From: Escherichia phage JLBYU32 | Reading direction: 5' to 3' (one strand) | Sequence record: OK272490.1 | DNA: 64,000 nucleotides | Shown: in pieces, positions 3,573-28,640 of the stretch | Position numbering within the stretch: position 1 is the stretch's first letter | Layout: each line of letters starts with the position of its first letter | The notes under the pieces: generated by a model | Told to the model about the DNA's origin: nothing | Database searches by the model: none | What the model saw: the letters and a program-made list of their open reading frames with translations, nothing else | Translations under genes and position numbers: made by a program

Positions 3573-3597
3573 AAGGCTGCTTCGGCGGCCTTTTTTA
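3573..3597 (+). terminator. rho-independent terminator
   Basis: GGCTGC-TTCG-GCGGCC hairpin followed by TTTTTTATTT. Confidence 0.7.
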
Positions 3598-3657
3598 TTT
3601 GTATTTTGTGCAGAGTGCTGTATAATTGTTGTCACGATAAACTAAACAGGAGAACCA

Positions 3658-6186: not shown

Positions 6187-6513
6187 ATGCAGATTAATGG
6201 AAGAGATTTTGTAGCCGTTTACTACGAGAAAGATAAAGAAGTTGGCGTAGCACAAGTATCTTATGGCAATGGTAAGTGGTTGTATGGGACAATCGCAGTA
6301 GTTGGAACAAGAAGTGATACAAAAACTTTTAAAGACTGTGTTGACCTTCTTGAAGAATCCATCCATAATCATTGGTGTCTGATATGGATGACTGACAACG
6401 AAGTGATAGAACGCTTCAAAAAGATTGGTATCAACATTGATAGCATTGAGCATGTTGACTTGTATGAGCTAACTGAGAAGGTAAACTATGAAAGTAATAC
6501 TAGCCAGAGATAA
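6187..6513 (+). CDS. hypothetical protein
   Basis: ORF in tightly packed + strand array. Confidence 0.5.
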   Translation: MQINGRDFVAVYYEKDKEVGVAQVSYGNGKWLYGTIAVVGTRSDTKTFKDCVDLLEESIHNHWCLIWMTDNEVIERFKKIGINIDSIEHVDLYELTEKVNYESNTSQR

Positions 6514-6914: not shown

Positions 6915-7700
6915 ATGGGTATTGTAAAAATCATCAATGGGGATATCTTCTCCGCATTTGATAAAGGTAAGTTTGATATTATTGGTCACGGTTGCAACTG
7001 TATGAACTTAATGGGTGCGGGTATCGCTGACAAGATTTCTAAACTTTACCCAAAAGCATATGAGACCGATACAGAAGCTTATCTGTATGCAGGTGGTATA
7101 GGTCACAAACCCTGTGAAAATTTACTAGGAAATTTCTCTGTAGCACGTTTAGAACAAGGCCGTATAGCTAATCTTTACACTCAGCTTAAGACTGGTAAAG
7201 ATGCCCGATACAGTGCTTTAGAGTCATCTTTGAAACAGCTTAACAGATACTGTGAAGTTAATCAGTTGAAGAAAGTCGGGTTACCTATGATTGGTGCAGG
7301 TATCGGTGGGCTAGACCCTCAAGCCGTCACAGTTATCATTAATCAGGTGATGAAGAGTGTAGATGTGTATCTGTATGTTTATGAAGGAGAGATGTACCAC
7401 AAGTTACGCTCAGGTTGGAAGAACTACTGTGAACCAGAATACTTTGCAGGTGTAGTAACGTTCACAGATAATACAGTTACCCTCTTCAGACGAAGAAAAG
7501 GTAAGATACATCAAAGTAACCCTCCGGTTGAAAAGATGTCTCTGAGTAACGCTCTAGTTACCCACCTGTCGAAGAGCAATCACAGGATTGCAGTAACATT
7601 TGGTAGTGATGCAGACACTTATATCTATGCAAGAACTGATGAGGATATCGAGACAGTTTTCTCTTCTCCAGAAGTTATCTTCTTAGACGCAAAGAACTAA
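6915..7700 (+). CDS. macrodomain protein (TARG1/OARD1-like ADP-ribose processing domain) with C-terminal extension
   Basis: DIIGHGCNCMNLMGAGIADKI resembles TARG1 HCISEDCRMGAGIA signature; second glycine-rich loop PMIGAGIGGLDP. Confidence 0.5.
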   Translation: MGIVKIINGDIFSAFDKGKFDIIGHGCNCMNLMGAGIADKISKLYPKAYETDTEAYLYAGGIGHKPCENLLGNFSVARLEQGRIANLYTQLKTGKDARYSALESSLKQLNRYCEVNQLKKVGLPMIGAGIGGLDPQAVTVIINQVMKSVDVYLYVYEGEMYHKLRSGWKNYCEPEYFAGVVTFTDNTVTLFRRRKGKIHQSNPPVEKMSLSNALVTHLSKSNHRIAVTFGSDADTYIYARTDEDIETVFSSPEVIFLDAKN

Positions 7701-7761
7701 GAAACTCTGTAGTATATTCACAATAGACTAAGCCTTTCTTATCTGGTAAATTTTTCAGGTA

Positions 7762-7965
7762 AGGAGGGCTTTTTCATTTCAGATTTGTGCAGGTAGAGTT
7801 CTGTAGAGAAATCTATAGAGAAAATTTTGAACTCCAAAGAGAAAATTCATTTTCAAACTGTGCAGGTAATCTCCAAAGAGCTTTTTCATTTTCAAAACGT
7901 GCAGACCCCGCTCAGGTCGGGCAAGAAAAATCATTTTAGAATTGTGCAGGTAGGTGGGTGCAGGT
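7762..7965 (+). repeat. four direct repeats of ~TTTCATTTTCAAA-N-TGTGCAGGTA in ORF-free intergenic region
   Basis: copies near 7764, 7848, 7884 and 7930 (last with duplicated GTGCAGGT); no ORF >=60 aa in 7701-8208 on the + strand. Confidence 0.7.
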
Positions 7966-8129
7966 GGGAATGTCGCCATTTCTCACAAGGCTACCACATC
8001 TGGAAATAAAAGTCAACAGAAAAATTTGTAGCGGATTGAAAAATAATTCTTGATTGTAGTTCTGTTTTGTGGTAGTCGCGCGCACCCGTTTCATTACAAT
8101 TTTTGCAAAAAATATTTTTAAAATTCCTA

Positions 8130-8158
8130 TTGACTCTTTGAGTATAGTTATCTAATAT
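8130..8158 (+). promoter_or_regulatory. sigma70-like promoter TTGACT-17-TAATAT
   Basis: consensus -35/-10 with 17-bp spacer ~50 bp upstream of first small ORF (8209). Confidence 0.6.
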
Positions 8159-8208
8159 TTGCATCAGACGGGCAATCAAGCCCACTTCCTAAACTGGAGA
8201 TTCAAAAA

Positions 8209-8397
8209 ATGGCATCAAGAAAGATTAAAGTTGGCGATGAGGTTAACATCAAGCACGAATACTCTTACAAAATGCTAACTATACGCTCTTATAAGGTTTA
8301 TCAGGTGGAAGCTATCCACGAAGATAACACTTTTTCCTTAAAAGGTTATAGCGAACGTTTCCCTGCTGAACTCTTTGAGAAATGGAGTGCGAAATAA
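8209..8397 (+). CDS. hypothetical small protein
   Basis: preceded by conserved AAACTGGAGATTCAAAAAATG RBS/start module. Confidence 0.55.
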   Translation: MASRKIKVGDEVNIKHEYSYKMLTIRSYKVYQVEAIHEDNTFSLKGYSERFPAELFEKWSAK

Positions 8398-8603
8398 TGA
8401 TATACAGTCGCGAATTGATGGTTACAACTAACATTCACACAAAGGCAAAACGTTTTTACATGCAAATTTGTGGCGTATGGTCTAGAATATCAGAAGCTGA
8501 CTATTGCAACTATGTAGAAACGTCTATAAACTCTAATTGCTACCTTACAAGAAATACAAGAAAGTACATAAGACAGACAGCAATTTACTACTACGATAAA
8601 TAA
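8397..8603 (+). CDS. hypothetical small protein (start ATG overlapping upstream stop, TAATG)
   Basis: ORF MIYSRELMV...; ends exactly at cassette-associated TAA. Confidence 0.35.
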   Translation: MIYSRELMVTTNIHTKAKRFYMQICGVWSRISEADYCNYVETSINSNCYLTRNTRKYIRQTAIYYYDK

Positions 8604-8690
8604 AGTACTTTACAAGGGGCTTATAGTTCGATAAAGTAAGCCCCAGATAAAGAGCTTTACTAACTAACCTTAAACTAGGAGAATCTGAAA
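8603..8690 (+). repeat. intergenic cassette type A (TAAAGTACTTTACA-GGGGCTTA..TAAGCCCC-AGATAAAGAGCTTTAC + RBS)
   Basis: near-identical copies at 8984, 9592, 10661; stem conserved, loop variable; begins at the stop codon of the upstream gene. Confidence 0.75.
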
Positions 8691-8984
8691 ATGGCTATTA
8701 TCAAAAACGTTGTAATTACTGCAAAAACTCGTGATGACGCTCGCGTTATGGCTAAAAAGTTATGCGGGAAAGTGGTTGACAACGGAAAACAATCTGCTGT
8801 AAGGTGGGGCGTGAAGGCTGATAAACAGTTGAAGTTAAAAAATTCACCGATAAACCTTTTTACATGTGTAAACACTATCGGGAAGACAAATGTATACACG
8901 AAAAAGGCATACATTAGACGCGTAGCATTAACATCCCCCATTCGTACAATGAGAAGTTATGCAAAGCTGAAAATTAACAAATAA
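8691..8984 (+). CDS. hypothetical small basic protein
   Basis: ORF after cassette with GGAGAATCTGAAAATG start context. Confidence 0.55.
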   Translation: MAIIKNVVITAKTRDDARVMAKKLCGKVVDNGKQSAVRWGVKADKQLKLKNSPINLFTCVNTIGKTNVYTKKAYIRRVALTSPIRTMRSYAKLKINK

Positions 8985-9069
8985 AGTACTTTACATGGGG
9001 CTTAAAAGTTGATATCTTAAGCCCCAGATAAAGAGCTTTACCACTCAATCCTAAACTGGAGATTCAAAA
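8984..9069 (+). repeat. intergenic cassette type A
   Basis: TAAAGTACTTTACATGGGGCTTAAAAGTTGATATCTTAAGCCCCAGATAAAGAGCTTTAC. Confidence 0.75.
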
Positions 9070-9582
9070 ATGAAAACTGTAGACGCTACTTTTGAAGTTG
9101 TAAAAGAAAAATTCACCATTATCTATGAAGCGGTAAATTGCTTTGAAGCAAGCCATAATCTTGATAATTGGAAGTTTACAGATGACCATCAAGGCGGTGT
9201 GACTATTAAAAACCCTAACTGTCAGCGTAACGATTTTAAATATGCAATTCCTTTAAATTATAGCCTTAAGCAGCTTTCTAGTGACTATGCAAAACAAGGC
9301 CGGGAAAACCCATCAAAAGAGGCTTATATCAGCTTACAGGAAGAAATAGAAAGAGATTTAGAGGCTTCAGAGTACAACCTTGCCGCGAAAGTTGTGGATG
9401 CAAACGGTAACACGGTTTTAGAAAGTTTTTATCTTGGTTATGCTTTCGATTGGTGCTATCGTGACGGCGATGATTTAGAGGATAGACTAAAAGAAGAGGT
9501 GAGCGATTCAGACGCAGAAACTGAAGTATTAGAACGTTTGGAATCGTTGAAAGACTCAGTGATGAATATCTTTAAGAACTAA
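9070..9582 (+). CDS. hypothetical protein with acidic C-terminus
   Basis: conserved GGAGATTCAAAAATG start module; D/E-rich C-terminal third. Confidence 0.55.
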   Translation: MKTVDATFEVVKEKFTIIYEAVNCFEASHNLDNWKFTDDHQGGVTIKNPNCQRNDFKYAIPLNYSLKQLSSDYAKQGRENPSKEAYISLQEEIERDLEASEYNLAAKVVDANGNTVLESFYLGYAFDWCYRDGDDLEDRLKEEVSDSDAETEVLERLESLKDSVMNIFKN

Positions 9583-9591
9583 ATAGATTTC

Positions 9592-9674
9592 TTTACACGG
9601 GGCTAACAAGCTGATATGATAGCCCCAGATAAAGAGATTTATCAAATAAAGCCCTTAAACTAGGAGATTCTAAA
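9592..9674 (+). repeat. intergenic cassette type A (variant)
   Basis: TTTACACGGGGCTAACAAGCTGATATGATAGCCCCAGATAAAGAG ... AAACTAGGAGATTCTAAAATG. Confidence 0.7.
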
Positions 9675-9971
9675 ATGAAATTATCGAATAAAGTTCGTGA
9701 AAATCTGAGCAAATTACTCAACAAAATTGATTTCATTGAAACATCAAGGAATAGCCATGATGTTATGGAATGGTTACACGGCAAAATAAAAGGTCGTCGT
9801 GTAGTGATTTGCTTATGGAATAGTTGCAGGGAGTATAAAAAACCTGTATTGCAAGTAAATATTTATGATGATACTTTTAAAAGTCCTGTAAAGTCTAAAA
9901 GTGATTTATTAGAATCCTATGAGATAACTTTAAATGGCAAAGTGTCACGTAAAGAGGAAACACCATGTTAA
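9675..9971 (+). CDS. hypothetical small protein
   Basis: ORF following cassette. Confidence 0.55.
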   Translation: MKLSNKVRENLSKLLNKIDFIETSRNSHDVMEWLHGKIKGRRVVICLWNSCREYKKPVLQVNIYDDTFKSPVKSKSDLLESYEITLNGKVSRKEETPC

Positions 9972-10297
9972 TGACTGGTATCACTGCAATCATTGCCATT
10001 TTCGCGCTATATAAGGCATATAAAGCCTATAATCTAGCAAATAAGGCAATCACACAGCAGGTTAGCAATAACCTTGTAGAAAGCTTTCTAGGGCGCCTCA
10101 GTGATGAGCAAATAAAGCGGCTAGAGATGAGCTTCAGATATAAAGCGAAAACCTATCAGATAAGTGACATCTTCAAAGATGATTTTCAGTTAGTCGATGA
10201 TTATAATTCACTGATAAATGCTTTAAATATCAGTGACTTGAAAGACTATTACGCTGTAATTGTTCAAGAATTGAGCAAACGAAAACAAAACAGTTGA
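9965..10297 (+). CDS. hypothetical protein with N-terminal hydrophobic helix
   Basis: ITAIIAIFALY hydrophobic segment; stop TGA lies inside the -35 of the next cassette promoter. Confidence 0.5.
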   Translation: MLMTGITAIIAIFALYKAYKAYNLANKAITQQVSNNLVESFLGRLSDEQIKRLEMSFRYKAKTYQISDIFKDDFQLVDDYNSLINALNISDLKDYYAVIVQELSKRKQNS

Positions 10298-10322
10298 CAC
10301 TGGTTTTTAGATAGATTAAATT
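10294..10322 (+). promoter_or_regulatory. sigma70-like promoter TTGACA-17-TAAATT (cassette type B)
   Basis: exact consensus -35, 17-bp spacer; duplicated at 11162. Confidence 0.6.
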
Positions 10323-10388
10323 ACACATCAACGGGGAGGGAATGACCTTCCCCACTAAGTAAAGTCCTTAAACTAGGAGATTCAAAAA
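10323..10388 (+). repeat. cassette type B hairpin + RBS (ACACATCAACGGGGAGGGAATGACCTTCCCCACTAAGTAAAGTCCTTAAACTAGGAGATTCAAAAA)
   Basis: GGGGAGGGAATGACCTTCCCC stem-loop; copies at 11191, 11758, 12352. Confidence 0.7.
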
Positions 10389-10661
10389 ATGTATACTACT
10401 AACAACGGTCGTACTCTAAATGTCACTCTACGTCACTACATCAACGGGGTGATGCACTTTGAAGACTTACAAGCTGAGCAACATATCTTAGATTGGCAAC
10501 TTGCAGGACTACAAAAAACTGCTACAGGATACGGGAAAAAGATTCCAACCAGTTGGAAAGTATACTACGAAGGCCGTTTGCGCAGAATTTATCAGGATGT
10601 GCAAAGCAATAGCGCATCGAGTTACATCATAGTAAAAGGTAAAAAGCTGCATTTAGTATAA
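10389..10661 (+). CDS. hypothetical small protein
   Basis: ORF after type B cassette. Confidence 0.55.
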   Translation: MYTTNNGRTLNVTLRHYINGVMHFEDLQAEQHILDWQLAGLQKTATGYGKKIPTSWKVYYEGRLRRIYQDVQSNSASSYIIVKGKKLHLV

Positions 10662-10747
10662 AGTACTTTACAAGGGGCTTATAGTTCGATAAAGTAAGCC
10701 CCAGATAAAGAGCTTTACCACTAAATCCTAAATTGGAGAACTTAAAA
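10661..10747 (+). repeat. intergenic cassette type A
   Basis: TAAAGTACTTTACAAGGGGCTTATAGTTCGATAAAGTAAGCCCCAGATAAAGAGCTTTACC, near identical to copy at 8603. Confidence 0.75.
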
Positions 10748-11152
10748 ATGACTATTAATAATCGCGAGTTATCAATCTTAAAAGCACGTTTGACCGTTAA
10801 CCGGATTAATGTTATTACGTCATCAGCACCGGACGAAACATTGCACAACATTATTGGGAAGATTCAAAGCGTTATCTTAGACGTTGAAAACGTAAAAAAC
10901 TCATTGGCTGACGTTGCAGCAGGTATCACGCTAGACGGTGCACAATATGAAATGTCAGACATGTTAGGCAAATCTAAGGTAATGAATAAAGAGTTAGATT
11001 TGAAAATGTTCCGATTTGCTGTTAAAGTGTGGCTATCTGTCGAGTATGACGCTAACTTTGCAATCGCTGACTTTTTCGCCACTTGGTTACAACGTAATTT
11101 GACAAATCATGATTTTCGTGGTATCTGTGATGCAATTTATGCAGAACTCTAA
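10748..11152 (+). CDS. hypothetical protein
   Basis: start moved to ATG at 10748 after GGAGAACTTAAAA module; track start at 10733 lies inside the RBS. Confidence 0.5.
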   Translation: MTINNRELSILKARLTVNRINVITSSAPDETLHNIIGKIQSVILDVENVKNSLADVAAGITLDGAQYEMSDMLGKSKVMNKELDLKMFRFAVKVWLSVEYDANFAIADFFATWLQRNLTNHDFRGICDAIYAEL

Positions 11153-11161
11153 AAAATTTTG

Positions 11162-11190
11162 TTGACACTGGTTTTCAGATAGATTAAATT
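11162..11190 (+). promoter_or_regulatory. sigma70-like promoter TTGACA-17-TAAATT (cassette type B copy)
   Basis: identical architecture to 10294-10322. Confidence 0.6.
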
Positions 11191-11253
11191 ACACATCAAC
11201 GGGGCGGGAATGAACTTCCCCACTAAATAAAGTCCTAAACTGGAGATTCAAAA
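11191..11253 (+). repeat. cassette type B hairpin + RBS
   Basis: GGGGCGGGAATGAACTTCCCC stem-loop then AAACTGGAGATTCAAAAATG. Confidence 0.7.
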
Positions 11254-11595
11254 ATGGCTTATGTAACCGTAATTACCGATAAAGCTGGCTCATCTTGGTC
11301 AACTCAAGTAAGCGATAAGATGTCACCTATGCAGTGCCTAAAATACTTTGAGCAGTGGAATAAAGGCGAGGATGTAAGCCCCTTTCAAGTAATGAAGGTT
11401 ATTCATGTAGACAATGAAGGGAAGAAAACAACGCTGAATAGTGAGTACTATGCAAGCCGTTTTGAAACGAGAAGTAAAACAATGAAACTTTTACGTGAGT
11501 CCGGTTATGCCCATATCGCCGCGTTAATCTGGGATGACCTGCTAAAAAACCAACGTATGAACTATGTAAAACCTGAAAAAATATTCATCAGTTAA
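11254..11595 (+). CDS. hypothetical protein
   Basis: ORF after type B cassette. Confidence 0.55.
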   Translation: MAYVTVITDKAGSSWSTQVSDKMSPMQCLKYFEQWNKGEDVSPFQVMKVIHVDNEGKKTTLNSEYYASRFETRSKTMKLLRESGYAHIAALIWDDLLKNQRMNYVKPEKIFIS

Positions 11596-11627
11596 TCAAT
11601 AACTTACAAAAAACTTTTAAAAAAGTA

Positions 11628-11656
11628 TTGACAATACCCCTTGACATTGGTAACTT
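11628..11656 (+). promoter_or_regulatory. candidate promoter TTGACA-17-TAACTT overlapped by palindrome GTATTGACAATAC
   Basis: perfect 13-bp palindrome centred on the -35; second TTGACA 8 bp downstream. Confidence 0.4.
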
Positions 11657-11724
11657 TGTTCGAGGGGGTTTATCTAAAAAGGATTAACTTAAAAGATTCT
11701 TTATAGATAAGCTTAAAAAATTGC

Positions 11725-11753
11725 TTGCAATCAGATATCAAAACAAGTAAATT
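11725..11753 (+). promoter_or_regulatory. sigma70-like promoter TTGCAA-17-TAAATT
   Basis: same -10 and spacing as type B cassette promoters; followed by type B hairpin. Confidence 0.5.
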
Positions 11754-11757
11754 ACTA

Positions 11758-11815
11758 ATCAACGGGAGGGAATGACCTTCCCCACTAAGTAAAGTCCTAA
11801 ACTGGAGATTCAAAA
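11758..11815 (+). repeat. cassette type B hairpin + RBS
   Basis: AATCAACGGGAGGGAATGACCTTCCCCACTAAGTAAAGTCCTAAACTGGAGATTCAAAA. Confidence 0.7.
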
Positions 11816-12346
11816 ATGAACAAGTTCAAAGCTATCAACTTCATTCGTTCAAATGCTGTAATGTCCAAGCCTGTTAAAGACACCTATGAATTTCGTTGCA
11901 ATGGTGAACATTTCGCAACCATCACCAAATCAGAAAACGGGGCTTATTATATCCATCGTCGTAATGTTTCTACCGTTGTAGTTTCTAACTTTATGCAAGC
12001 TGTAGCGGAACTCCTCCCGCTCTTCATGGAAAAGTATGCCGTACAATGTGAAAGTGTTCGTGAATGCACTAAATCAGTACTTAACGGTTATCGTATGGCT
12101 TACGAGCGCTCTTTAAAGAATCTCAATAAGTACTACAAAGCACCAGAAGGTACTACCTCGACAGCCTACGGGGTAGGGGGCTTCAATGTTAGCCTTTACG
12201 AAGTGGAAGAAATCGAGCTTTACGACCATCGCCCAAATGGTTACGCTAAAACACTGGGGGAAGGGTTAATGATGAATATCAAGAACTTAGAAAAAACTTT
12301 AAGAGAAATTGAAAAAGACATTGACGAGACAATCAAAAATCTGTAA
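11816..12346 (+). CDS. hypothetical protein
   Basis: ORF after cassette. Confidence 0.55.
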   Translation: MNKFKAINFIRSNAVMSKPVKDTYEFRCNGEHFATITKSENGAYYIHRRNVSTVVVSNFMQAVAELLPLFMEKYAVQCESVRECTKSVLNGYRMAYERSLKNLNKYYKAPEGTTSTAYGVGGFNVSLYEVEEIELYDHRPNGYAKTLGEGLMMNIKNLEKTLREIEKDIDETIKNL

Positions 12347-12349
12347 ATT
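12321..12349 (+). promoter_or_regulatory. sigma70-like promoter TTGACG-17-TAAATT inside 3' end of upstream gene
   Basis: same -10/spacing as cassette promoters; precedes type B hairpin. Confidence 0.5.
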
Positions 12350-12351
12350 GT

Positions 12352-12414
12352 CAATCAACGGGGAGGTAATGAACTTCCCCACTACATAAAACCCTTAAAC
12401 TAGGAGATTCAAAA
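12352..12414 (+). repeat. cassette type B hairpin + RBS
   Basis: GGGGAGGTAATGAACTTCCCC stem-loop then AAACTAGGAGATTCAAAAATG. Confidence 0.7.
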
Positions 12415-12663
12415 ATGGCAACTATTCGCGCTACTGTTAACGAATTTGGTTTTTCCTCTCTGGATGTTAAATTTGACATTGTAGGCACTGATAACGCCTT
12501 TGAAATGGTGAAAGGTCTTATCAGTCAGACTATCAAAGGCTATAATCCTTCGGAAGAGTTCTGGGAGGAAACAAAACAAGAAGTTCTCAAGGATGGTTAT
12601 ACTTATCACTATTGGGGAGAAAAAATCGTCTCCCTGTACTACAACAAACAAGATTATAACTAA
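12415..12663 (+). CDS. hypothetical small protein
   Basis: ORF after cassette; last gene of + strand array. Confidence 0.55.
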   Translation: MATIRATVNEFGFSSLDVKFDIVGTDNAFEMVKGLISQTIKGYNPSEEFWEETKQEVLKDGYTYHYWGEKIVSLYYNKQDYN

Positions 12664-14434
12664 TCGACGCAGCGGGGCTAAATAGCCCCAGATACCTTTA
12701 CAGCCCCTTTATTTAGATTCGATAGAGTCTATCTCATAGGGGCTTTTTTACGTCCTATCAAATCCCTTATACAATCCCTTTCCCTTTCCTTTCCAGAATC
12801 TTATCAGACCTTAAAAAGCAATAACTCTATAGTCTACTCTATAGCCTACTCTATAGCCTTTTATCAAATCAACTTAAATATAAGCCCATAACCCGAAAGG
12901 GAAGGGCAACCATTTAAACGCTCTATAAAGCCCTATAACAGCCTTATCAACCTAACTTAAGGGATTGCATTACCTCACCCTTAAAAGCCCTTTATAAAGC
13001 TTCCCAGAGCCTTAAAAGAATCTTATAAGGGTGTAAGCTTTATCATCTCGTTAGCTATCTTGTGAACTACTAAACAACCCCCTTGATAGTCACTAAAAAG
13101 TATGTTATAGGGGCTTTAAAGTTGCTTAAAAGTAGCTTAAAAGTTACTTCAAAGTTACGTAAATGCTAGCCCCCTTAACATTTTCTTAACAATTTCTTAA
13201 CAAACCCTACATAGTTATGCTTGTTAGCAACTTGTTAGCCCCTTGTTAAATCTCTGTTAAGACCACGTAAAAGCCTTGTAAGAGTCTTTGACATAGCCTT
13301 TAAAGCCCCTGTAAAGCCCTATAAAGAGCTATCTGTACAGTTGGGCTGTAGTTACTAGGGAGAGACTTAAAAGGGGCTATACAGAGCTATACAGAGCTTT
13401 TAAGAGGTATGTTTAGAGAATCACTAAGAAAGGAAAGGGAACGATAAGAAAAGATAGTTGTGTTTGTAAACAACCACTGTGACCATGTTAATAGCTTGTT
13501 AAAAAGGTTAAACACTTGTTAGGAACTTGTTAATTATCTTAACAAAATAACTCTTAAAAATTAACTTGTTAGCTCTTGTTAGTCATCTGTTAAGATTCTG
13601 TAAAGACTATTCAGCACTTGTTAATTGGTATTGTTACCAATCCCTAGAAAACTGTTACAGCCTTGTTAGTTCTGTTAAGAATCTGTTAAGACCTTTGAAG
13701 AATTGTTAAGAAGATGTGAGAACTGTTAAGAGATTGTTAAGGATATTTTAAAATTCTGCAAAGGGGGTGTTAAGGAGCTGTTAAGGGCTACCAAGCAGAT
13801 ATACATCTTCTACAGATATTTTTCAGTTCCTTCAAAGACCCTAAAAAATGACTTGATAGTCCTATTTTATAAAAATTTTAAAAATCTGAATAATTACCTA
13901 TACAGTCTTTTAAAAATACAGGTAGAAACAGGCTTATAAGATACCTTGTTAGTACCGTGTTAGACCTTGTGAGATAAGGTCTGTAAAGATATTCCTGTTA
14001 AGTTTGTTAAAACAGTCTATATAGAGGCTTAGTAATACCTAGTGAACACCTATAGAGGGTGACATAGCTGACATAGAGATTAAGAGGTGTATAGGAGCTT
14101 CTAAGAGTGTGTAGAGAGATGGTTAAGGTGATTGTATAGGTTGTTTAGAAGGCTTGTTAGAAGAGTGTTTAGAAGGCTTGTTAGAGGGCTTGTTAGAAGG
14201 GTTATACAGAGGGGCTATTAAGACCACTAGATAGTTACTAAGATACTATATAGTACTATATAACTATATATATATAGAGAGTAAGATTAAGAAGGTTGTT
14301 AAGAAGGATAGATATTTGTTCACATATGATGGTGACCCAGAGGTTGGGACAACCGATAAAATTTTATAAAAAGTATAAATTTCGTAAATTTTACTCAATA
14401 AAAAGCCCCCGATTAAGGAGGCTCTTAAGATATT
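12664..14434. repeat. 1.7 kb ORF-free, repeat-dense region between convergent gene blocks
   Basis: no ORF >=60 aa on either strand; tandem CTCTATAG(T/C)CTA x3 (~12826-12860), GCTTGTTAGA(A/G)G x4 (~14143-14200), dozens of YTGTTAR units, TATATA tract ~14246-14280. Confidence 0.8.
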
Positions 14435-15491: not shown

Positions 15492-15764
15492 TTAAAGCCT
15501 ATCAATTTGAAATTCTTCAGGTAACTCAGCAACCACTTTTAAATAGTAAGCGTCAGAGATTGTATGCTTTGTCTCATAGCTACCATTCTTAATCCAGTTA
15601 TAATTTTCTGGTACTCCATCATCATTACAGAAACCTGAGTACATAATTGCTCTGTGGATTATATTTTTATTAGAGTATGCAACATCTACAATATAGTATG
15701 TTTTTTCTTTCCAACCACCTTCAGGTTTACAAATACCTGAGATACCTTCTAATTCTGGTGTCAT
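15492..15764 (-). CDS. hypothetical protein
   Basis: ORF. Confidence 0.5.
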   Translation of the reverse strand: MTPELEGISGICKPEGGWKEKTYYIVDVAYSNKNIIHRAIMYSGFCNDDGVPENYNWIKNGSYETKHTISDAYYLKVVAELPEEFQIDRL

Positions 15765-23719: not shown

Positions 23720-23796
23720 CTCTGTTTAGCTCAGCTTGGTAGAGCGTTCCGTTTGGGGCGGTAAGGCCGGAGGTTCAAGTCCTCCAACAGAGACCA
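23720..23796 (+). tRNA. tRNA-Pro (anticodon TGG)
   Basis: hand-folded cloverleaf; 7-bp acceptor, T-arm GGAGG-TTCAAGT-CCTCC, CCA encoded. Confidence 0.7.
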
Positions 23797-23803
23797 AATT
23801 AAT

Positions 23804-23881
23804 GTTCCAGTAGACAAAACGGTAAAGTCACCACTCTTTCAAAGTGGATATTTGAGGGCTCAAATCCCTTCTGGAACGCCA
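23804..23881 (+). tRNA. tRNA-Glu (anticodon TTC), atypical T-loop CTCAAAT
   Basis: perfect acceptor and anticodon stems; loop CTTTCAA. Confidence 0.7.
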
Positions 23882-23883
23882 GT

Positions 23884-23963
23884 TTTGACAGAAGACCAAT
23901 TACAGCAAGTTTAATCTTATTCATCTGACACGAAATCGGACAAAGAAGAGATTTGGTCTGGTC
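23884..23963 (+). repeat. tRNA spacer element CAGAAGACC..ACAGCAA ... TTGGTCTGG (copy 1)
   Basis: long-range inverted repeat AGACC/GGTCT; recurs at least 4 times between tRNAs. Confidence 0.6.
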
Positions 23964-23972
23964 ATTAAGAAT

Positions 23973-24049
23973 TGCGGGTATAGAGAAAGGGCGTCTCACA
24001 TGTCTCATTAGCATGGTATCGGCAGGTTCGACTCCTGCACCCGCCTCCA
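23973..24049 (+). tRNA. tRNA-Met (anticodon CAT)
   Basis: anticodon loop CTCATTA; T-arm GCAGG-TTCGACT-CCTGC; 1-72 mismatch. Confidence 0.65.
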
Positions 24050-24050
24050 A

Positions 24051-24117
24051 TTTTGCAGAAGACCGTATGCAGCAATAAACTACTTTTTGCGGATAAAAGA
24101 AAAAACACGGTCTGGCA
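24051..24117 (+). repeat. tRNA spacer element (copy 2)
   Basis: TTTTGCAGAAGACCGTATGCAGCAA ... CACGGTCTGGC. Confidence 0.6.
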
Positions 24118-24126
24118 ATGTATTAA

Positions 24127-24203
24127 GGTTAGGAAGCACATAAGGTATGTGCGGTCGCCTGTTAAGCGAATGGCACAGGGTTCGAATCCCTGACTAACCG
24201 CCA
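24127..24203 (+). tRNA. tRNA-Asn (anticodon GTT)
   Basis: loop CTGTTAA; T-arm CAGGG-TTCGAAT-CCCTG. Confidence 0.75.
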
Positions 24204-24212
24204 AATTTAAAT

Positions 24213-24300
24213 GTGTCGTTATCCCGTAGATGGTAGCGGTGGGGACTGTAAATCCCTTGTCATTGAGACTCGGTAGGTTCGACTCCTACACGGCACACCA
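24213..24300 (+). tRNA. tRNA-Tyr (anticodon GTA), long variable arm
   Basis: 88 nt; loop CTGTAAA; T-arm GTAGG-TTCGACT-CCTAC. Confidence 0.7.
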
Positions 24301-24306
24301 AATAAA

Positions 24307-24384
24307 GGTTATGTAGTTTAATCTGGTTAAAATACTCCCCTGTCACGGGAGATGATGAGGGTTCAAATCCCTTCGTAACCGCCA
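24307..24384 (+). tRNA. tRNA-Asp (anticodon GTC)
   Basis: anticodon stem CTCCC/GGGAG, loop CTGTCAC. Confidence 0.75.
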
Positions 24385-24442
24385 ATTTTGAGAGGGCTAT
24401 TTAGCCCCTCCCTTAAAGAGTTCTTACGAGTATTCTTTAAAG

Positions 24443-24514
24443 GAGCAGAAGACCAAATACAGCAAATACGTATGATATTTTCAAGCCAATTTAATTTTGA
24501 AAAAATTTAAAACT
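24443..24514 (+). repeat. tRNA spacer element (copy 3)
   Basis: GCAGAAGACCAAATACAGCAA ... AACTTGGTCTGGC. Confidence 0.6.
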
Positions 24515-24520
24515 TGGTCT

Positions 24521-24668
24521 GGCTCAACAATTTTACAGAAGACCGTTTACAGCAAAACTTAAACAATCTATTTCTCGGTAAAGAAAAGGAGAAGGTTCGA
24601 TTCCTTCACTCGACAGATGTCGAGTTGGTGTAATGGTAGCACTTAAGATGATAAACAACGGTCTGGTA
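24521..24668 (+). repeat. tRNA spacer element (copy 4) containing a tRNA-like fragment
   Basis: TTTTACAGAAGACCGTTTACAGCAA ... AACGGTCTGG. Confidence 0.6.
24585..24640 (+). pseudogene. tRNA-like fragment: T-arm then acceptor-like hairpin then D-arm-like segment (degenerate or permuted tRNA?)
   Basis: GAAGG-TTCGATT-CCTTC then ACTCGAC-AGAT-GTCGAGT then TGGTGTAATGGTAGCAC; no canonical cloverleaf in normal order. Confidence 0.25.
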
Positions 24669-24817
24669 ATCATCTTTGCAGTAGCTTATGTGGCTAATTA
24701 TGTCGTCCCATGAGTGCCGATGAATTTCCTTAGCATGATTCTAGATTAGCTTAATAGGAAATGACTCTACAGACCCTTTAGCAAGGTCTGCGTAGGTTAC
24801 TGCAAAGATGATTTAAT

Positions 24818-24892
24818 GGAAGTGTAGCAGAATGGTGATGCGGCAGACTTTTAATCTGACAGGCGATGGGTTCGAATCCCTCCACTTCTACC
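24818..24892 (+). tRNA. tRNA-Lys (anticodon TTT)
   Basis: loop CTTTTAA; paralog of tRNA at 26051 (shared T-arm GATGGGTTCRAWTCCCTCC). Confidence 0.65.
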
Positions 24893-24897
24893 AAAAT

Positions 24898-24974
24898 GGT
24901 TCAGTCGCAGATAAGGTAATGCAGGGGTCTCATAAGCCCTATGAATGTGGGTTCGATTCCCATCTGAACCTCCA
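24898..24974 (+). tRNA. tRNA with anticodon CAT (Met, or Ile via lysidine)
   Basis: loop CTCATAA; perfect acceptor GGTTCAG/CTGAACC. Confidence 0.7.
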
Positions 24975-24976
24975 AT

Positions 24977-25051
24977 TGTGGGTTAGCATAAATGGTAATG
25001 CAAACGGCTGATAACCGTTAGAAGAGGGTTCGATACCCTCACCTACAACCA
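24977..25051 (+). tRNA. tRNA-Ile (anticodon GAT)
   Basis: anticodon stem AACGG/CCGTT, loop CTGATAA. Confidence 0.75.
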
Positions 25052-25066
25052 ATTTCAATAAAGTTG

Positions 25067-25095
25067 TTGACATTTAGATGTGACCACTTTATAGT
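25067..25095 (+). promoter_or_regulatory. sigma70-like promoter TTGACA-17-TATAGT inside tRNA cluster
   Basis: consensus boxes; followed by ~200 nt of structured non-tRNA sequence before next tRNA. Confidence 0.6.
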
Positions 25096-25299
25096 AACCT
25101 TAGTTTTCGTTGCGTAGCGTCTATTTTGCAAATTTAAAATAAATGCAAACGACAATGTTTTTCTGGCAGTAGCTTGATAGGCTAAACACCAGTGAGGTCT
25201 TCCAATCCCTCATCAAAGAATTTGGCGTACTAGCCCACGGTATGATTAATAAAGTGGGCATCTTTAAGGGCTTTCTAAGAGAGTCTTTAAAGATAATTA

Positions 25300-25381
25300 C
25301 GGGGCGTATCTCAGCTGTCTTCTAAACAGCCGTTAACCGAGTAAGTGGAGTATGCGGGTTCGAGTCCTGCCGCCTCGACCA
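25300..25381 (+). tRNA. atypical tRNA-like gene (possible anticodon TCT, Arg); fold uncertain
   Basis: good acceptor and T-arm (GCGGG-TTCGAGT-CCTGC) but non-canonical D region; hairpin GCTGT-CTTCTAA-ACAGC. Confidence 0.35.
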
Positions 25382-25524
25382 ATTTAGTTAGCAGATTACT
25401 TAGACGACCTAAGCGGGTCTTCCTGTAGGGAGGTGGTCTGTATCTCATGTTTTCCAGAACATGTAAATAATCTGAGAAGGGGCTTTACAGTGTTGAGATA
25501 ATACGGTAAGCTTCGAATTATAGT

Positions 25525-25606
25525 ATGGGACGATGTTAAGACTCTAAGGCATGAGCAACGGCTTCCAACACCGTTTCAAAGGGGTTCAACTCCTCCGTCC
25601 CATGCC
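25525..25606 (+). tRNA. atypical tRNA, possibly tRNA-Trp (anticodon CCA) with oversized D region
   Basis: perfect 7-bp acceptor ATGGGAC/GTCCCAT, T-loop TTCAACT; candidate anticodon loop TTCCAAC. Confidence 0.4.
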
Positions 25607-25620
25607 AAAGTCTTATTAGG

Positions 25621-25708
25621 GGTAGGTAGCGGCTAATGGTAGCCAAACTGTCTTGAAAACAGTTGCCACTGTAGAGATACGGTGAGGGTTCGACTCCTTT
25701 ACTTACCG
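25621..25708 (+). tRNA. tRNA-Ser (anticodon TGA), long variable arm
   Basis: 88 nt; anticodon stem ACTGT/ACAGT loop CTTGAAA; CCA not encoded. Confidence 0.7.
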
Positions 25709-25855
25709 CCTAATAAGATTTAAAGCCAAGCTTCATTCGGATGTTGCTTTGGTATACCGCGTGTATTGTTGTACACACAGATAAAACACCTAGTAGGTGT
25801 CACGGAGAAGAGATAATATCAAGCTCTCCAAAGGTTCTAGTCACCGGATTAAACA

Positions 25856-25880
25856 AGACTATGCAAAGACCTTTTTAGGT
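25856..25880 (+). terminator. hairpin + T-tract inside tRNA cluster spacer
   Basis: AAGACC-TTTTT-AGGTCTT followed by TTTTAGAG. Confidence 0.4.
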
Positions 25881-25966
25881 CTTTTTAGAGGGCTTCTAAG
25901 GTTATTAGTCGCTTGTTGTGGAACCTTGTTGCTCAGGTTCTTAGAAGTTCTCTAAAAAGATTTAAT

Positions 25967-26043
25967 GCACCTATAGCCCAACTGGTGGAGGCAGCAGACT
26001 TAGAATCTGCTCAGTGTGAGTTCGAATCTCTCTAGGTGTACCA
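25967..26043 (+). tRNA. tRNA with anticodon TAG (Leu by anticodon) but class I (short variable loop) shape
   Basis: anticodon stem GCAGA/TCTGC loop CTTAGAA; 77 nt; discriminator A. Confidence 0.6.
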
Positions 26044-26050
26044 AATTAAT

Positions 26051-26126
26051 GCAGGTGTAGCAAAATGGTTATGCGGCTGACTCTTAATCAGTAAGACGAT
26101 GGGTTCAATTCCCTCCACCTGTACCA
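26051..26126 (+). tRNA. tRNA-Lys (anticodon CTT)
   Basis: loop CTCTTAA; paralog of tRNA-Lys(TTT) at 24818. Confidence 0.65.
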
Positions 26127-26132
26127 AACATT

Positions 26133-26208
26133 GGGGTCATAGTTTATATGGTTAAAATTCGAGTTTTGCAAACTTGGGAACTGAGTTCAATTCTCAGTGA
26201 CTCCACCA
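26133..26208 (+). tRNA. tRNA-Ala (anticodon TGC)
   Basis: G3:U70 wobble pair in acceptor stem; loop TTTGCAA; T-arm CTGAG-TTCAATT-CTCAG. Confidence 0.8.
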
Positions 26209-26214
26209 ATTAGT

Positions 26215-26289
26215 GCATCCATAGTTTAAACGGGAAAATTACAGTCTTCCAAACTGAGGTTGAGGGTTCGATTCCCTCTGGATGCTCCA
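26215..26289 (+). tRNA. tRNA-Gly (anticodon TCC)
   Basis: perfect acceptor GCATCCA/TGGATGC; loop CTTCCAA. Confidence 0.75.
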
Positions 26290-26296
26290 AATTAAT

Positions 26297-26372
26297 GCTC
26301 CTATCGTATAATTGGCTATTACGGTTGCCTTGTAAGCAACTTATCAGGGTTCGAATCCTTGTGGGAGCACCA
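26297..26372 (+). tRNA. tRNA-Thr (anticodon TGT)
   Basis: anticodon stem GTTGC/GCAAC loop CTTGTAA. Confidence 0.8.
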
Positions 26373-26467
26373 ATTCAGAGGTCAAGTGAAAGACCGCTTT
26401 GAGTCAACTGAAGACCGTAACAAATTCCACGGAGTTGAGTTAGCGGCACAACTCCAGACCTCTTTCA

Positions 26468-26543
26468 TACTCGCTTAGTTTATATGGTAAAACATCACCC
26501 TTACAAGATGAAGAAAAAGGTTCAAGTCCTTTAGTGAGTACCA
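26468..26543 (+). tRNA. tRNA-Val (anticodon TAC)
   Basis: T-arm AAAGG-TTCAAGT-CCTTT; loop CTTACAA. Confidence 0.65.
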
Positions 26544-26544
26544 T

Positions 26545-26622
26545 GTTCCAGTATCCCAATTGGCAGAGGATGCAAGCTCAAACCTTGTACTAGTGACGGT
26601 TCGAATCCGTCTTGGAACACCA
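26545..26622 (+). tRNA. tRNA with anticodon CAA (Leu by anticodon), class I shape
   Basis: T-arm GACGG-TTCGAAT-CCGTC; loop CTCAAAC; discriminator A. Confidence 0.6.
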
Positions 26623-26627
26623 ATTTT

Positions 26628-26703
26628 GCAGGATTAGTTCAAATGGAAAGAGCAACAGTCTACGAAGCTGTTAATAGGGGTTCGAATCCCTTATCCTGCG
26701 CCA
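26628..26703 (+). tRNA. tRNA-Arg (anticodon ACG)
   Basis: perfect acceptor GCAGGAT/ATCCTGC; loop CTACGAA. Confidence 0.8.
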
Positions 26704-26722
26704 ATTTAAAGAGGCTATTTAG

Positions 26723-27280
26723 ATGAGATATTTGAAGTATGCTTCATGGATTTTCTTAGCTTTGTTAGAGCCATTTGCAGCAATCTTAGCAGTTATCTTA
26801 GCACCTTTTGTAGTTCCATTCTACAGTGAGAAGAAAGGACACTTACCTTTCGGGTTCAGATGGATGGAGACATATGACAACCCAATTGATGGTGATGAAG
26901 GTCACGTTAAAAGATGGGCTAATATTAGATGGATTGGTAAACTAGGTGTCTACATGCAAAGAGTCGGATGGCTCTGGAGAAACAAAGCTTATAACTTCTC
27001 TTACCATGTATTAGGAAGAGATGTAAAAGATGTTACTAAGTGGAAAGGTAATATCAACGTAAGTTCTGACCCCGAAGATAATCAGACAGGTTATCTCCTA
27101 ATGTGGAACAGTAATGCTTGGGGATTATTCGCTTTTATCCCATCAATTAAAATCTTTGGTAAACAATTTTACTGGAGAATTTATATTGGATGGAAACTAA
27201 AAAGTGTTGTCCCAGAAGAAAGAGCATTCTCAAGGGAAAGAGTTATGTTGGCATTCTTTATTCATCCACTGAGAAAGTAA
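26723..27280 (+). CDS. hypothetical membrane-anchored, Trp-rich protein embedded in tRNA cluster
   Basis: AAAGAGG RBS 8 nt upstream of ATG; N-terminal hydrophobic segment. Confidence 0.55.
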   Translation: MRYLKYASWIFLALLEPFAAILAVILAPFVVPFYSEKKGHLPFGFRWMETYDNPIDGDEGHVKRWANIRWIGKLGVYMQRVGWLWRNKAYNFSYHVLGRDVKDVTKWKGNINVSSDPEDNQTGYLLMWNSNAWGLFAFIPSIKIFGKQFYWRIYIGWKLKSVVPEERAFSRERVMLAFFIHPLRK

Positions 27281-27288
27281 AGATTTAA

Positions 27289-27364
27289 AGGGGATTAGTT
27301 TACAAGGTTAAAACCTCGGTCTTTGAAATCGAAGAAGTTGGTTCAATTCCAACATCCCCCGCCA
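27289..27364 (+). tRNA. tRNA-Gln (anticodon TTG)
   Basis: T-arm GTTGG-TTCAATT-CCAAC; loop CTTTGAA. Confidence 0.7.
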
Positions 27365-27366
27365 AT

Positions 27367-27445
27367 GCTCCATTACTCCAATTGGCAGAGAGGCCAGACT
27401 TAAAATCTGTGTTATGTATCGGTTCGAATCCGATATGGAGTACCA
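27367..27445 (+). tRNA. tRNA with anticodon TAA (Leu by anticodon), class I-like shape
   Basis: T-arm ATCGG-TTCGAAT-CCGAT; loop CTTAAAA; discriminator A. Confidence 0.6.
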
Positions 27446-27450
27446 AATTT

Positions 27451-27526
27451 AGCGGTATAGCATAACTGGCAATGCAGCAGCCTCTGAAGCTGTCCTATTA
27501 AGGTTCAAATCCTTATGCCGCTGCCA
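27451..27526 (+). tRNA. tRNA-Gln (anticodon CTG)
   Basis: T-arm TAAGG-TTCAAAT-CCTTA; loop CTCTGAA. Confidence 0.65.
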
Positions 27527-27557
27527 CTTCTAAGGATTCTTGCGAGAGTCCTTAAAT

Positions 27558-27633
27558 GTGGCCTTATCATAAATGGTAATGACCCATGCTGTGAACATGG
27601 TCTATACGGGTTCAAATCCCGTAGGTCACCCCA
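27558..27633 (+). tRNA. tRNA-His (anticodon GTG)
   Basis: anticodon stem CCATG/CATGG loop CTGTGAA; discriminator C. Confidence 0.75.
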
Positions 27634-27639
27634 ATTTAT

Positions 27640-27715
27640 AGTCCAAGTAGCTTATATGGTTAAAGCGCGTGTCTGAAAAACATGAGAAGAGGGTTCGAAT
27701 CCCACTGGACTACCA
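27640..27715 (+). tRNA. tRNA-Phe (anticodon GAA)
   Basis: loop CTGAAAA; T-loop TTCGAAT; acceptor pairing slightly ambiguous. Confidence 0.65.
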
Positions 27716-27731
27716 ATTTCAAAGGTGCTTA

Positions 27732-28466
27732 ATGAAAGAGATGACAGAACAAGGTAAGGAGATTTTTAATCTCTTAAAAACCGGTAGAGGGTTTTCTAAT
27801 CCCCTTATTACTGGTGCAGCAGTTCTCGGTGGAACCGTAGCTGCCTCTACATCACTTGTAAGTTCTATTAGCTCTGTAACAGACCCTACAATGAAGGAGA
27901 AACTTGTTGCTGCTGGACTTACAACAGTCCTTCTAAACAGCTTTACAACAAGCCTTACAAGCACTACAGCGACTACTAAGACCTTAACAGACTATGGTCA
28001 AAAGTCTATTGATGAGTTTTCATCACGTATGCAGGTAGCAAAGGGGTATTCCAATGTTATGGGTGCAGCAGGGGAACAAGTTGGCTGTACACCGTTTAGT
28101 GGTATTATGGGCGTTGCTACAGAATATGGTCAAAAAGCTATTGACACAATTAACAGTGCACTAGATGACGTTAATGATGTATTAAGTGACTTACAAGATG
28201 CTATTGATAAGGGTCTTGATACTGTTTCTGATTTAGCTAATCAGGCTGTTAGCAAGATTAATGAAGGTATCTCGAAGATTACAGCTTATGCAGATGAAGT
28301 TGTGCAGATGATTGAAGAAGAAGCTGCCCTTATTGCAGAGTACCTTAAAACGAATATCAATGGGTTCTTAGCAGGTATCTTACCAGACTGGTTTGATGAT
28401 GCCTGTAAAACTGGTGTAATTGATACTATTGCAACACCAGAAATGAAGAGCGCATTACAGAAGTAA
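27732..28466 (+). CDS. hypothetical Ser/Thr/Ala-rich protein embedded in tRNA cluster
   Basis: start moved to ATG 27732 (track start 27669 is an alternative start inside tRNA-Phe); ends 1 nt before tRNA-Ser. Confidence 0.5.
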   Translation: MKEMTEQGKEIFNLLKTGRGFSNPLITGAAVLGGTVAASTSLVSSISSVTDPTMKEKLVAAGLTTVLLNSFTTSLTSTTATTKTLTDYGQKSIDEFSSRMQVAKGYSNVMGAAGEQVGCTPFSGIMGVATEYGQKAIDTINSALDDVNDVLSDLQDAIDKGLDTVSDLANQAVSKINEGISKITAYADEVVQMIEEEAALIAEYLKTNINGFLAGILPDWFDDACKTGVIDTIATPEMKSALQK

Positions 28467-28467
28467 T

Positions 28468-28560
28468 GGAAGATTAACCCTAAAAGGTAAGGGAGCAGTT
28501 TGCTAAACTGCCAGTAGCTGAGAAATCGGTGTACCAGTTCAAGTCTGGTATCTTCCTCCA
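28468..28560 (+). tRNA. tRNA-Ser (anticodon GCT), long variable arm
   Basis: 93 nt; perfect acceptor GGAAGAT/ATCTTCC; anticodon stem GCAGT/ACTGC loop TTGCTAA. Confidence 0.75.
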
Positions 28561-28564
28561 ATTT

Positions 28565-28640
28565 GAATCCGTGACAGAAATGGCTATGTGCCTGTCTGCA
28601 AAACAGGTTTATAAGGGTTCGAGTCCCTTCGGATTCTCCA
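28565..28640 (+). tRNA. tRNA-Cys (anticodon GCA)
   Basis: perfect acceptor GAATCCG/CGGATTC; anticodon stem CCTGT/ACAGG loop CTGCAAA. Confidence 0.8.

Follow-up and report, generated by a model that had tools for sequence, protein, structure and literature searches.

A conserved, iteron-like array of putative protein-binding boxes at a single locus in Felix O1-like phages

The genome of Escherichia phage JLBYU32 (sequence record OK272490.1) carries four copies of an asymmetric 32-nt box, all in the same orientation, in the non-coding gap at positions 7,701-8,208 of the 64,000-nucleotide stretch analysed here (the window), which is a Felixounavirus genome. Based on the sequence of these boxes and on their distribution among phages, we propose that they probably constitute a single-locus, orientation-locked, iteron-like array of asymmetric sites for a sequence-specific DNA-binding protein, and that this putative binder is most probably encoded by the phage. 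The element is sequence-specific, locked in orientation, confined to one locus and shared across genera, and it comes with no conserved RNA or open reading frame (ORF); in these respects it behaves as a protein-binding cis element. A preliminary description of this DNA had suggested iterons or regulator binding sites. The general part of that suggestion, sites for a protein, is supported; the evidence does not favour either of the two named roles decisively, and each fails some of its defining features.

The gap of ~508 bp is large for a Felix O1-type genome, in which genes are reported to account for ~92% of the sequence (PMC3185647), and in GenBank records it is either left unannotated or filled with doubtful small ORFs. 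No description of the array was found in the literature searched: in its list of direct repeats of at least 24 bp, the Felix O1 genome paper does not include the array, and it names no origin and describes temporal regulation as not understood (PMC3185647); the wV8 paper makes no mention of repeats; and the text of the Bas63 knockout screen does not report the array gap. The array is thus a new, well-delimited case of a familiar class, that of protein-binding repeat arrays. Phages of the Felix O1 type have long served in diagnosis and therapy and have been isolated repeatedly; a conserved, single-copy target of 190 bp makes questions about their origin, gene timing and DNA entry directly testable. 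There is also a practical side, in that insertions engineered into the seemingly 'empty' array gap could hit an essential cis element.

Structure and distribution of the box array

The core of the box is TCATTTT-N6-GTGCA, which is 18 nt long and extends to 32 nt with its flanks. All four direct repeats of the preliminary description were found where it had placed them, on the + strand. Box R1 lies at 7764-7795 (GAGGGCTTTTTCATTTCAGATTTGTGCAGGTA; copy CTTTTTCATTTCAGATTTGTGCAGGTAG, core 7774-7791; 45.7 bits) and was also recovered in repeat families D2, D3 and D5. R2 follows at 7837-7868 (AAGAGAAAATTCATTTTCAAACTGTGCAGGTA; copy AAAATTCATTTTCAAACTGTGCAGGTAA, core 7847-7864; 41.1 bits) and is identical in 15 of 28 distinct arrays. 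R3, at 7876-7907 (AAGAGCTTTTTCATTTTCAAAACGTGCAGACC; copy CTTTTTCATTTTCAAAACGTGCAGACCC, core 7886-7903, without the GGTA tail; 41.4 bits), is the best-conserved copy across genera, its columns being almost invariant in an alignment of 32 distinct sequences. R4 occupies 7921-7952 (GCAAGAAAAATCATTTTAGAATTGTGCAGGTA; copy AAAAATCATTTTAGAATTGTGCAGGTAG, core 7931-7948; 35.9 bits) and is followed by a second GTGCAGGTG at 7958-7966. The start-to-start spacing is 73, 39 and 45 bp. Although the repeat described earlier is real, it was drawn too short: the full box consists of AGRG, an A5 or T5 tract, TCATTTT, N6 and GTGCAG. The AGRG, TCATTTT and GTGCAG blocks are ~10-12 bp apart centre to centre, with the A5 or T5 tract between the first two, and at this spacing all three lie on the same side of the helix.

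Chance is excluded as the origin of the repeats. A 32-nt weight matrix built from 59 distinct box copies scores 36-46 bits at the four boxes; the best site after these, in the 64-kb window as well as in phage Tf, whose complete genome measures 89.5 kb, reaches 16.2 bits. A 22-nt degenerate pattern gives three matches in the array at up to two mismatches, with 0.06 expected, and one match at three mismatches at 15502. Within the 508 bp, TCATTT occurs four times (0.23 expected) and GTGCAG five times (0.17 expected), every one of them on the + strand. Tandem Repeats Finder misses the four-box array because the unit lengths differ. The sole other box-like site, a 16-bit match at 3585-3616 (GCGGCCTTTTTTATTTGTATTTTGTGCAGAGT), lies right after the rIIB terminator, within the spacer of an ordinary TTGTAT-16-TATAAT promoter, and is conserved in phage Tf.

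Remnants of further copies accompany the four boxes. Between R1 and R2, at 7800-7836 on the + strand, lies a decayed unit made of a 12-bp tandem repeat, TCTATAGAGAAA twice, plus AAAATTTTGAAC, with no GTGCA half (Tandem Repeats Finder, 7800-7823; repeat families D7 and D9), and its presence there accounts for the double-length gap of 73 bp. Downstream of R4, a conserved block, AAAAGTCAACAGAAAAATTTGTAGCGGATTGAAAAATAATTCTTGATTGTAG, extends over 8008-8060 (+ strand); Felix O1, Moogle, ESh22 and SUSP1 each agree with it at 43-49 of its 53 positions. Its 3′ half (8038-8060; repeat family D4) resembles a degenerate box minus the GTGCA half, and the corresponding spot in L181 reads GAAAAATAATTCTTGATTTGTGC. 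A possible degenerate half-box, TTTCATTACAATTTTTGCAA, is found at 8089-8108 on the + strand (repeat family D11, 80% to R1), and falls below significance with the full matrix. The array may be pictured as four boxes plus a fifth unit that has decayed, with two degenerate copies on the downstream side. The duplicated GTGCAGGT after R4, to which the preliminary description had drawn attention, is present at 7958-7966 but confined to part of the genus; because it is lineage-specific and belongs to a hypervariable stretch, the functional core probably does not include it.

The array is conserved well beyond the genus. Its surroundings (1.2 kb) match 223 phage records at 90-96% identity, nearly all of them Felixounavirus phages of Escherichia, Salmonella and Shigella. 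The 508-bp region itself matches 288 phage records, among which the Erwinia phages match only positions 146-248 of the query, that is, exactly boxes R2-R4. In Felixounavirus, Mooglevirus, Suspvirus, Kolesnikvirus and lineage L145, three to five copies occupy one fixed place in a conserved order of macro-domain gene, terminator, array and promoter. Citrobacter phage Moogle, Shigella phage ESh22 and phiSUSP1 have four boxes each; some Felixounaviruses (finno, Si3) have three; and L145, a metagenomic lineage of 88 kb to which nothing in the phage collection is closely related, has five after its macro-domain gene. Erwinia phage phiEa21-4 (Kolesnikvirus) has four boxes, TTTTTCATTTTcaAtTTGTGCATAG, in the same gap after the homologous gene 14; their 18-nt cores differ from R2 of the window at ~2 positions, and the flanks do not align. 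The spacing is 73/39/45 in Felixounavirus, 75/41/45 in Mooglevirus and Suspvirus, 77/39/45 in ESh22 and 37/37/39 in Kolesnikvirus. Across genera, box cores are 83-86% identical and spacers 61-75%; in the comparison with Moogle, 62 of 72 core positions are shared, 37 of 61 spacer positions, and 17 of 53 positions of the variable stretch.

In five lineages, the array is followed at 180-230 bp by a TTGAC-type promoter, whose first downstream gene is not homologous between lineages; this argues against a tie between the array and any one regulated gene. A single-box scan of viral contigs was swamped by chance matches. A pattern of two neighbouring boxes hits 31 viral contigs, of which 30 are Ounavirinae-type (most of 84-94 kb, a few shorter) with one locus each, and the 31st is an unrelated tandem duplication. 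The two-box pattern gave nothing in the E. coli genomes and plasmids searched and only chance tandem repeats, from unrelated taxa, in bacterial genomes, so that no copy is found in hosts, plasmids or satellites; the distant macro-domain loci L190 and L191 have no array, and the metagenome scan revealed no further array lineage. A 10.2-kb, unrelated metagenome contig (L137, the same as L235) contains at 6250-6330, on the minus strand, two 50-bp tandem units with AATCATTTTAACATAGTGCAGTG, situated just upstream of a promoter-like site and a pair of genes of 151 and 543 aa that are terminase-like by size only. This contig has no match in the phage collection, and the likeness of its units to the boxes is probably due to chance.

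Possible roles of the array

If the boxes are bound as we infer, a protein would contact each along one helix face in successive major grooves, in the manner of iteron-binding initiators, and would assemble on three to five same-direction copies at one site of the chromosome. The binder may be one protein or a two-domain protein. The only recognisable helix-turn-helix (HTH) regulator is an Xre-type protein of 99 aa, encoded at 55200-55496 on the minus strand and 99% identical to a phage Tf 'transcriptional regulator'. It was rejected as the binder on account of its distribution: it is found in 258 Felix-, Moogle- and Susp-type records and in none of the 28 Erwinia phage records with the array region. 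No DNA-binding domain was detected in the neighbouring macro-domain protein, the ten downstream small ORFs gave no Pfam match and no functional PHROG match, and the products of unknown function in the replication module gave no informative family.

Among specific roles, we tentatively put forward that the array could be the recognition part of the phage replication origin, a possibility that we rate below an even chance. With one locus per genome and variable downstream genes, a chromosome-level cis element is favoured over a gene-specific regulator, and as the packaging signals lie elsewhere in this terminal-repeat phage, a replication origin is the obvious candidate. The array is, by analogy, most like iteron origins (lambda ori with its O protein, P1 oriR, F ori2, pSC101 and R6K) in number, orientation, asymmetry and uniqueness: these likewise present three to five same-orientation, asymmetric boxes of ~20 bp at one non-coding locus per replicon, near an A/T-rich segment and a promoter, and the two-part box likewise suggests contacts in successive major grooves. 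At least three same-orientation asymmetric direct repeats of ~17-22 bp characterise an iteron origin, and here there are four boxes with 18-nt cores. Among phages, the oriE region of T4 carries iterons and RepEB. The primary origin of T7 has promoters followed by an A/T-rich region and is used by the gp4 primase-helicase and gp5 polymerase; the replication genes of this phage are likewise T7-type (primase-helicase, family-A polymerase), and the array likewise adjoins a very strong promoter flanked by A/T-rich DNA. T7 differs in having its own RNA polymerase and no iteron array, whereas here the host polymerase would transcribe (PMC3185647). T7-type replication genes together with the lack of a phage RNA polymerase (see also PMC3185647) make a promoter-assisted origin plausible. 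In such an origin, the bound protein would mark the site; the very strong promoter for host RNA polymerase, with its A/T-rich UP region 180 bp downstream, would supply strand opening or an RNA primer; and the primase-helicase and family-A polymerase would then start from the array.

Several observations weigh against an origin. The boxes are spaced 37-77 bp apart and are not helically phased, in contrast to the ~22-bp spacing (two helical turns) of iteron origins. Iteron origins also work with a Rep- or O-type initiator, and none is adjacent to the array or detectable: we found no initiator family among the annotated genes of Tf and phiEa21-4 or among the ORFs scanned, although many of the proteins are of unknown function and one of them may yet be an initiator. 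There is no GC-skew switch, the skew being +0.06 to +0.22 on both sides of the array, although this is a weak test in phages, in which transcription is the main determinant of GC skew. The UP element of the promoter can by itself explain the A/T-rich stretch, and the conserved linkage of array and promoter at 180-230 bp suits promoter control equally well. The iteron half of the preliminary suggestion is thus borne out in its direct repeats, and not in iteron-like spacing or a skew switch; because the spacing differs and no initiator was detected, we do not file the array as an iteron origin.

A close rival of the origin reading, which we consider a lesser but real possibility, is that the array is an upstream control region of the early promoter at 8130-8158, where a bound phage or host factor would activate, silence or insulate that promoter by DNA looping or wrapping, or would block read-through from the long upstream operon. 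A sigma-70 promoter always lies at 180-230 bp in every lineage despite the differing downstream genes, R1 is fused to the T-tract of the terminator in Felix-, Moogle- and Susp-type phages, and a candidate regulator, the Xre-type HTH protein encoded at 55200-55496, is at hand. That the timing of Felix O1 transcription is described as not understood (PMC3185647) is also compatible with such control. The geometry is less favourable. The core of R4 ends 182 bp before the -35 element, R1 starts ~366 bp before it and the boxes span ~182-370 bp upstream of it, outside the usual reach of sigma-70 activators and repressors (about 100 bp), and there is no sigma-54 promoter. The promoter at 8130-8158 is one of several similar cassette promoters, yet the others of the family, including its sisters at 10294 and 11162, have no boxes, and no other site exceeds 16.2 bits. 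The Xre protein is absent from the array-bearing Erwinia phages, no regulator is annotated in phiEa21-4, and Xre proteins usually bind inverted rather than direct repeats. The Cox boxes of phage P2 form a phage-switch operator array of same-orientation short boxes with cooperative binding near a promoter, and the array likewise has several same-orientation boxes near a promoter; the Cox boxes, however, are 9-bp units about one helical turn apart that overlap the promoters they control, whereas here units of 30 bp recur every 37-77 bp and keep a distance of at least 180 bp to the promoter. For the operator half of the preliminary suggestion, then, the conserved linkage speaks in favour, and the distance of 182-370 bp and the box-free sister promoters speak against. 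The idea that each box is itself a promoter was rejected, as no acceptable -35/-10 pair is seen by eye on either strand and the promoter scan gives the one at 8130 only.

The boxes could instead be crossover linkers for module exchange, or functionless remnants of a duplication of the terminator tail; we regard this as an unlikely reason for their existence. Similarity breakpoints do fall exactly at box edges: in finno, BPS17L1, Si3 and FSL SP-107, the match to the window does not begin before query base 186, where the R3 core starts. Copy number shifts by whole units (spacing variants of 75/45 or 112/45), and the downstream block is built of cassettes and highly variable. Neutral remnants, however, would not hold 83-86% identity in their cores while their spacers drop to 61-75%, and the core motif survives where the flanks no longer align. 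Judging from the breakpoints at box edges and the whole-unit changes in copy number, the boxes evidently serve as crossover points, natural ones between phage modules, and the array is also a practical marker; that the boxes recombine, however, more plausibly follows from their conservation than explains it.

Still less probable is that the boxes are DnaA boxes or another host-factor site, with DnaA recruited for replication or, along the lines suggested for the T5 injection-stop region, for membrane attachment. In phiEa21-4, all four boxes hold CTATGCACA or TTATGCACG, one mismatch from TTWTNCACA, and L145 has CTATGCACA, its first copy carrying the variant CGTGGATAG; the GTGCATAG half is thus one mismatch from a DnaA box, a frequent origin component, in phiEa21-4 and in part in L145. 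The window and all Felix-, Moogle- and Susp-type phages, in contrast, read ACCTGCACA or GTCTGCACG, which differ at three positions and are missed even when two mismatches are allowed. The Felix-type GTGCAGGTA is strongly conserved yet misfits the DnaA box, and the TCATTTT and AGRG blocks, which are just as well conserved, have no counterpart in DnaA boxes. Patterns for IHF, CRP and sigma-54 were also compared, and none coincides with the boxes in this phage. Support from outside the group comes from T5, in whose injection-stop region clustered DnaA boxes including TTATGCACA are conserved (bioRxiv 10.1101/866236).

That region offers a further analogy, from which the array might be a pause or boundary signal for DNA entry akin to the T5 injection-stop site, although we think this very unlikely. 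The injection-stop region of T5-like phages consists of conserved non-coding repeats with paired DnaA boxes (bioRxiv 10.1101/866236). The array, too, is a cluster of conserved repeats in non-coding DNA, and it borders a terminal block of small early genes on the inner side; the block from promoter to repeat end measures ~5.7 kb, or ~6% of the genome, compared with 7.9% in T5. DnaA-box-like cores occur in some array lineages, but the Felix-type boxes are poor DnaA matches. In T5, moreover, the boxes form pairs 3 bp apart, embedded in large inverted repeats that belong to a terminal repeat of 10 kb; here, four direct repeats lie 5.2 kb inside a terminal repeat of 0.6 kb. Were the analogy to hold, the right end would enter first and the boxes would hold the DNA until takeover proteins had been made from the ~5.7-kb block, with its small, fast-evolving genes and strong host-type promoters, and the remaining genome would follow; two-step genome delivery would then have a second, independent instance in the Felix-O1-like myoviruses. 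We found no report of two-step DNA entry for Felix O1 in the literature searched.

That the array is a genome end, a packaging site or a structured RNA gene is highly improbable: short-repeat arrays do flank the ends of T7- and T5-type genomes and several metagenome contigs stop 100-200 bp past the boxes, but these breaks lie in the hypervariable stretch of one multi-strain metagenome, and the direct terminal repeat maps to 13170-13792, which places the array ~5.2 kb inside the right end.

Genome ends, RNA and coding signals

The position of the genome end derives from several records. Phage D4 has the same 581 bp at both ends of its record, aligning to 13170-13792 of the window, and records SPJ41, NBEco005, D4 and I14.1 begin at the terminal-repeat sequence and have two copies each. 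The D4 record was opened with PhageTerm (PMC11737134), and published terminal repeats measure 581 bp (PMC8303462) and, as mapped with Bal31, 608 bp (PMC4837284). Three further records are not informative on genome ends: JN225449 (UAB_Phi87) was opened away from the physical ends, and Fifi106 and Fifi318 have other starting points. The terminal repeat sits in a non-coding zone of 1.6 kb (12830-14400) that contains, on the + strand, 25 copies of YTGTTAR, out of 70 in the whole window. Many copies are exactly 11 bp apart (such as 13221/13232/13243/13254), and the zone has three inverted copies, two of which lie at the left edge of the repeat (13186 and 13197). The YTGTTAR copies are probably packaging, concatemer-processing or replication sites.

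Several other explanations of the array gap were tried and rejected. Rfam at gathering thresholds finds only tRNAs in the window, and as for a structured RNA in the gap, a consensus fold over five genera keeps the terminator helix only, with an unfavourable covariation term of +3.79. An array of clustered regularly interspaced short palindromic repeats (CRISPR) does not fit periods of 37-45 bp with conserved 'spacers'. A hidden ORF or repetitive peptide is contradicted by the comparison between phages: there are stop-free stretches in several frames, but no frame is conserved, none is present in phiEa21-4, and the box spacings of Kolesnikvirus are not multiples of three. The preliminary description had called the region ORF-free, which is not literally so, as mechanical ORFs of 50-66 aa occur on both strands, though none of these is conserved in frame or found in phiEa21-4.

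The adjacent promoter and neighbouring features

The promoter downstream of the array, TTGACT-17-TAATAT at 8130-8158 on the + strand, is of the sigma-70 type. It had been called a consensus promoter; the promoter is indeed there, and the scan finds 9 of 12 consensus positions, short of a full consensus. TTGAC and a TAnTAT-type -10 are conserved in all five genera aligned, and the record of phage ASO1A gives a promoter in the equivalent position. An A/T-rich stretch extends over 8098-8128 and includes an UP-element-like sequence read from the letters, which strengthens the promoter, AAAAATATTTTTAAAAT (8108-8124, + strand; about -57 to -41 of the promoter). The UP-element consensus is AAAWWTWTTTTNNAAAA, with which 8108-8124 agrees at 16 of 17 positions and at the canonical distance from the -35; its AAAAATATTTTTAAAA is kept in Moogle and ESh22. 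In L145, a run of TTAACA repeats lies directly between box array and promoter (L145:600-760). The 5′ leader (8159-8208, + strand) contains a hairpin, GGGC-AATCAA-GCCC (8170-8183), and the ribosome-binding box CCTAAACTGGAGATTCAAAAA before the ATG at 8209.

From 8209 onward, the gap is flanked by a run of small ORFs whose products are of unknown function. This small-ORF array (8159-12420) is made of repeated cassettes of promoter, leader hairpin and ribosome-binding box, which resemble the promoter/stem-loop cassettes of T4-type phages, by which small early genes are shuffled. The first cassette type has a TTGACA-N17-TTAAAT promoter (10294 and 11162), the leader hairpin GGGGAGG...CCTTCCCC and a near-invariant ribosome-binding box; the second has TTTACA, the hairpin GGGGCTTA...TAAGCCCC, and GATAAAGAG. 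An exact ribosome-binding 22-mer recurs at 8187, 9049, 11233 and 11795, with variants at 8669, 9654, 10367 and 12394.

On its other side the gap is bordered by a gene for a macro-domain protein of 261 aa (6915-7700), annotated 'phosphatase' or Tk.4-like and, at 6915-7697, matching the Pfam Macro domain. The intrinsic terminator hairpin of this gene (7730-7771, + strand; 17 pairs and an 8-nt loop in the terminator scan) ends in the T-tract CTTTTT, which continues into box R1. Between R4 and the conserved block, the hypervariable stretch occupies 7955-8007 (+ strand), where 15-19 of 53 aligned positions are common to other genera; whereas the window is G-rich there, Felix O1, Moogle and ESh22 have a C-rich sequence (CCCCTCTCCCCC...). 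In one metagenome, several contigs stop in or just past this stretch, where strain mixtures probably broke the assembly. On the minus strand, TTGACT at 8012-8017 and, 17 bp further on, TAGCCT (replaced by TAAGAG in Felix O1 and Moogle) form a weak, partly conserved, leftward promoter-like site that, if active, would give an antisense transcript over the box array. Elsewhere, by comparison with phage ASO1A, the window starts at about the rIIA gene, and 25 tRNA genes are clustered at 23720-28640 on the + strand, as is usual for the genus.

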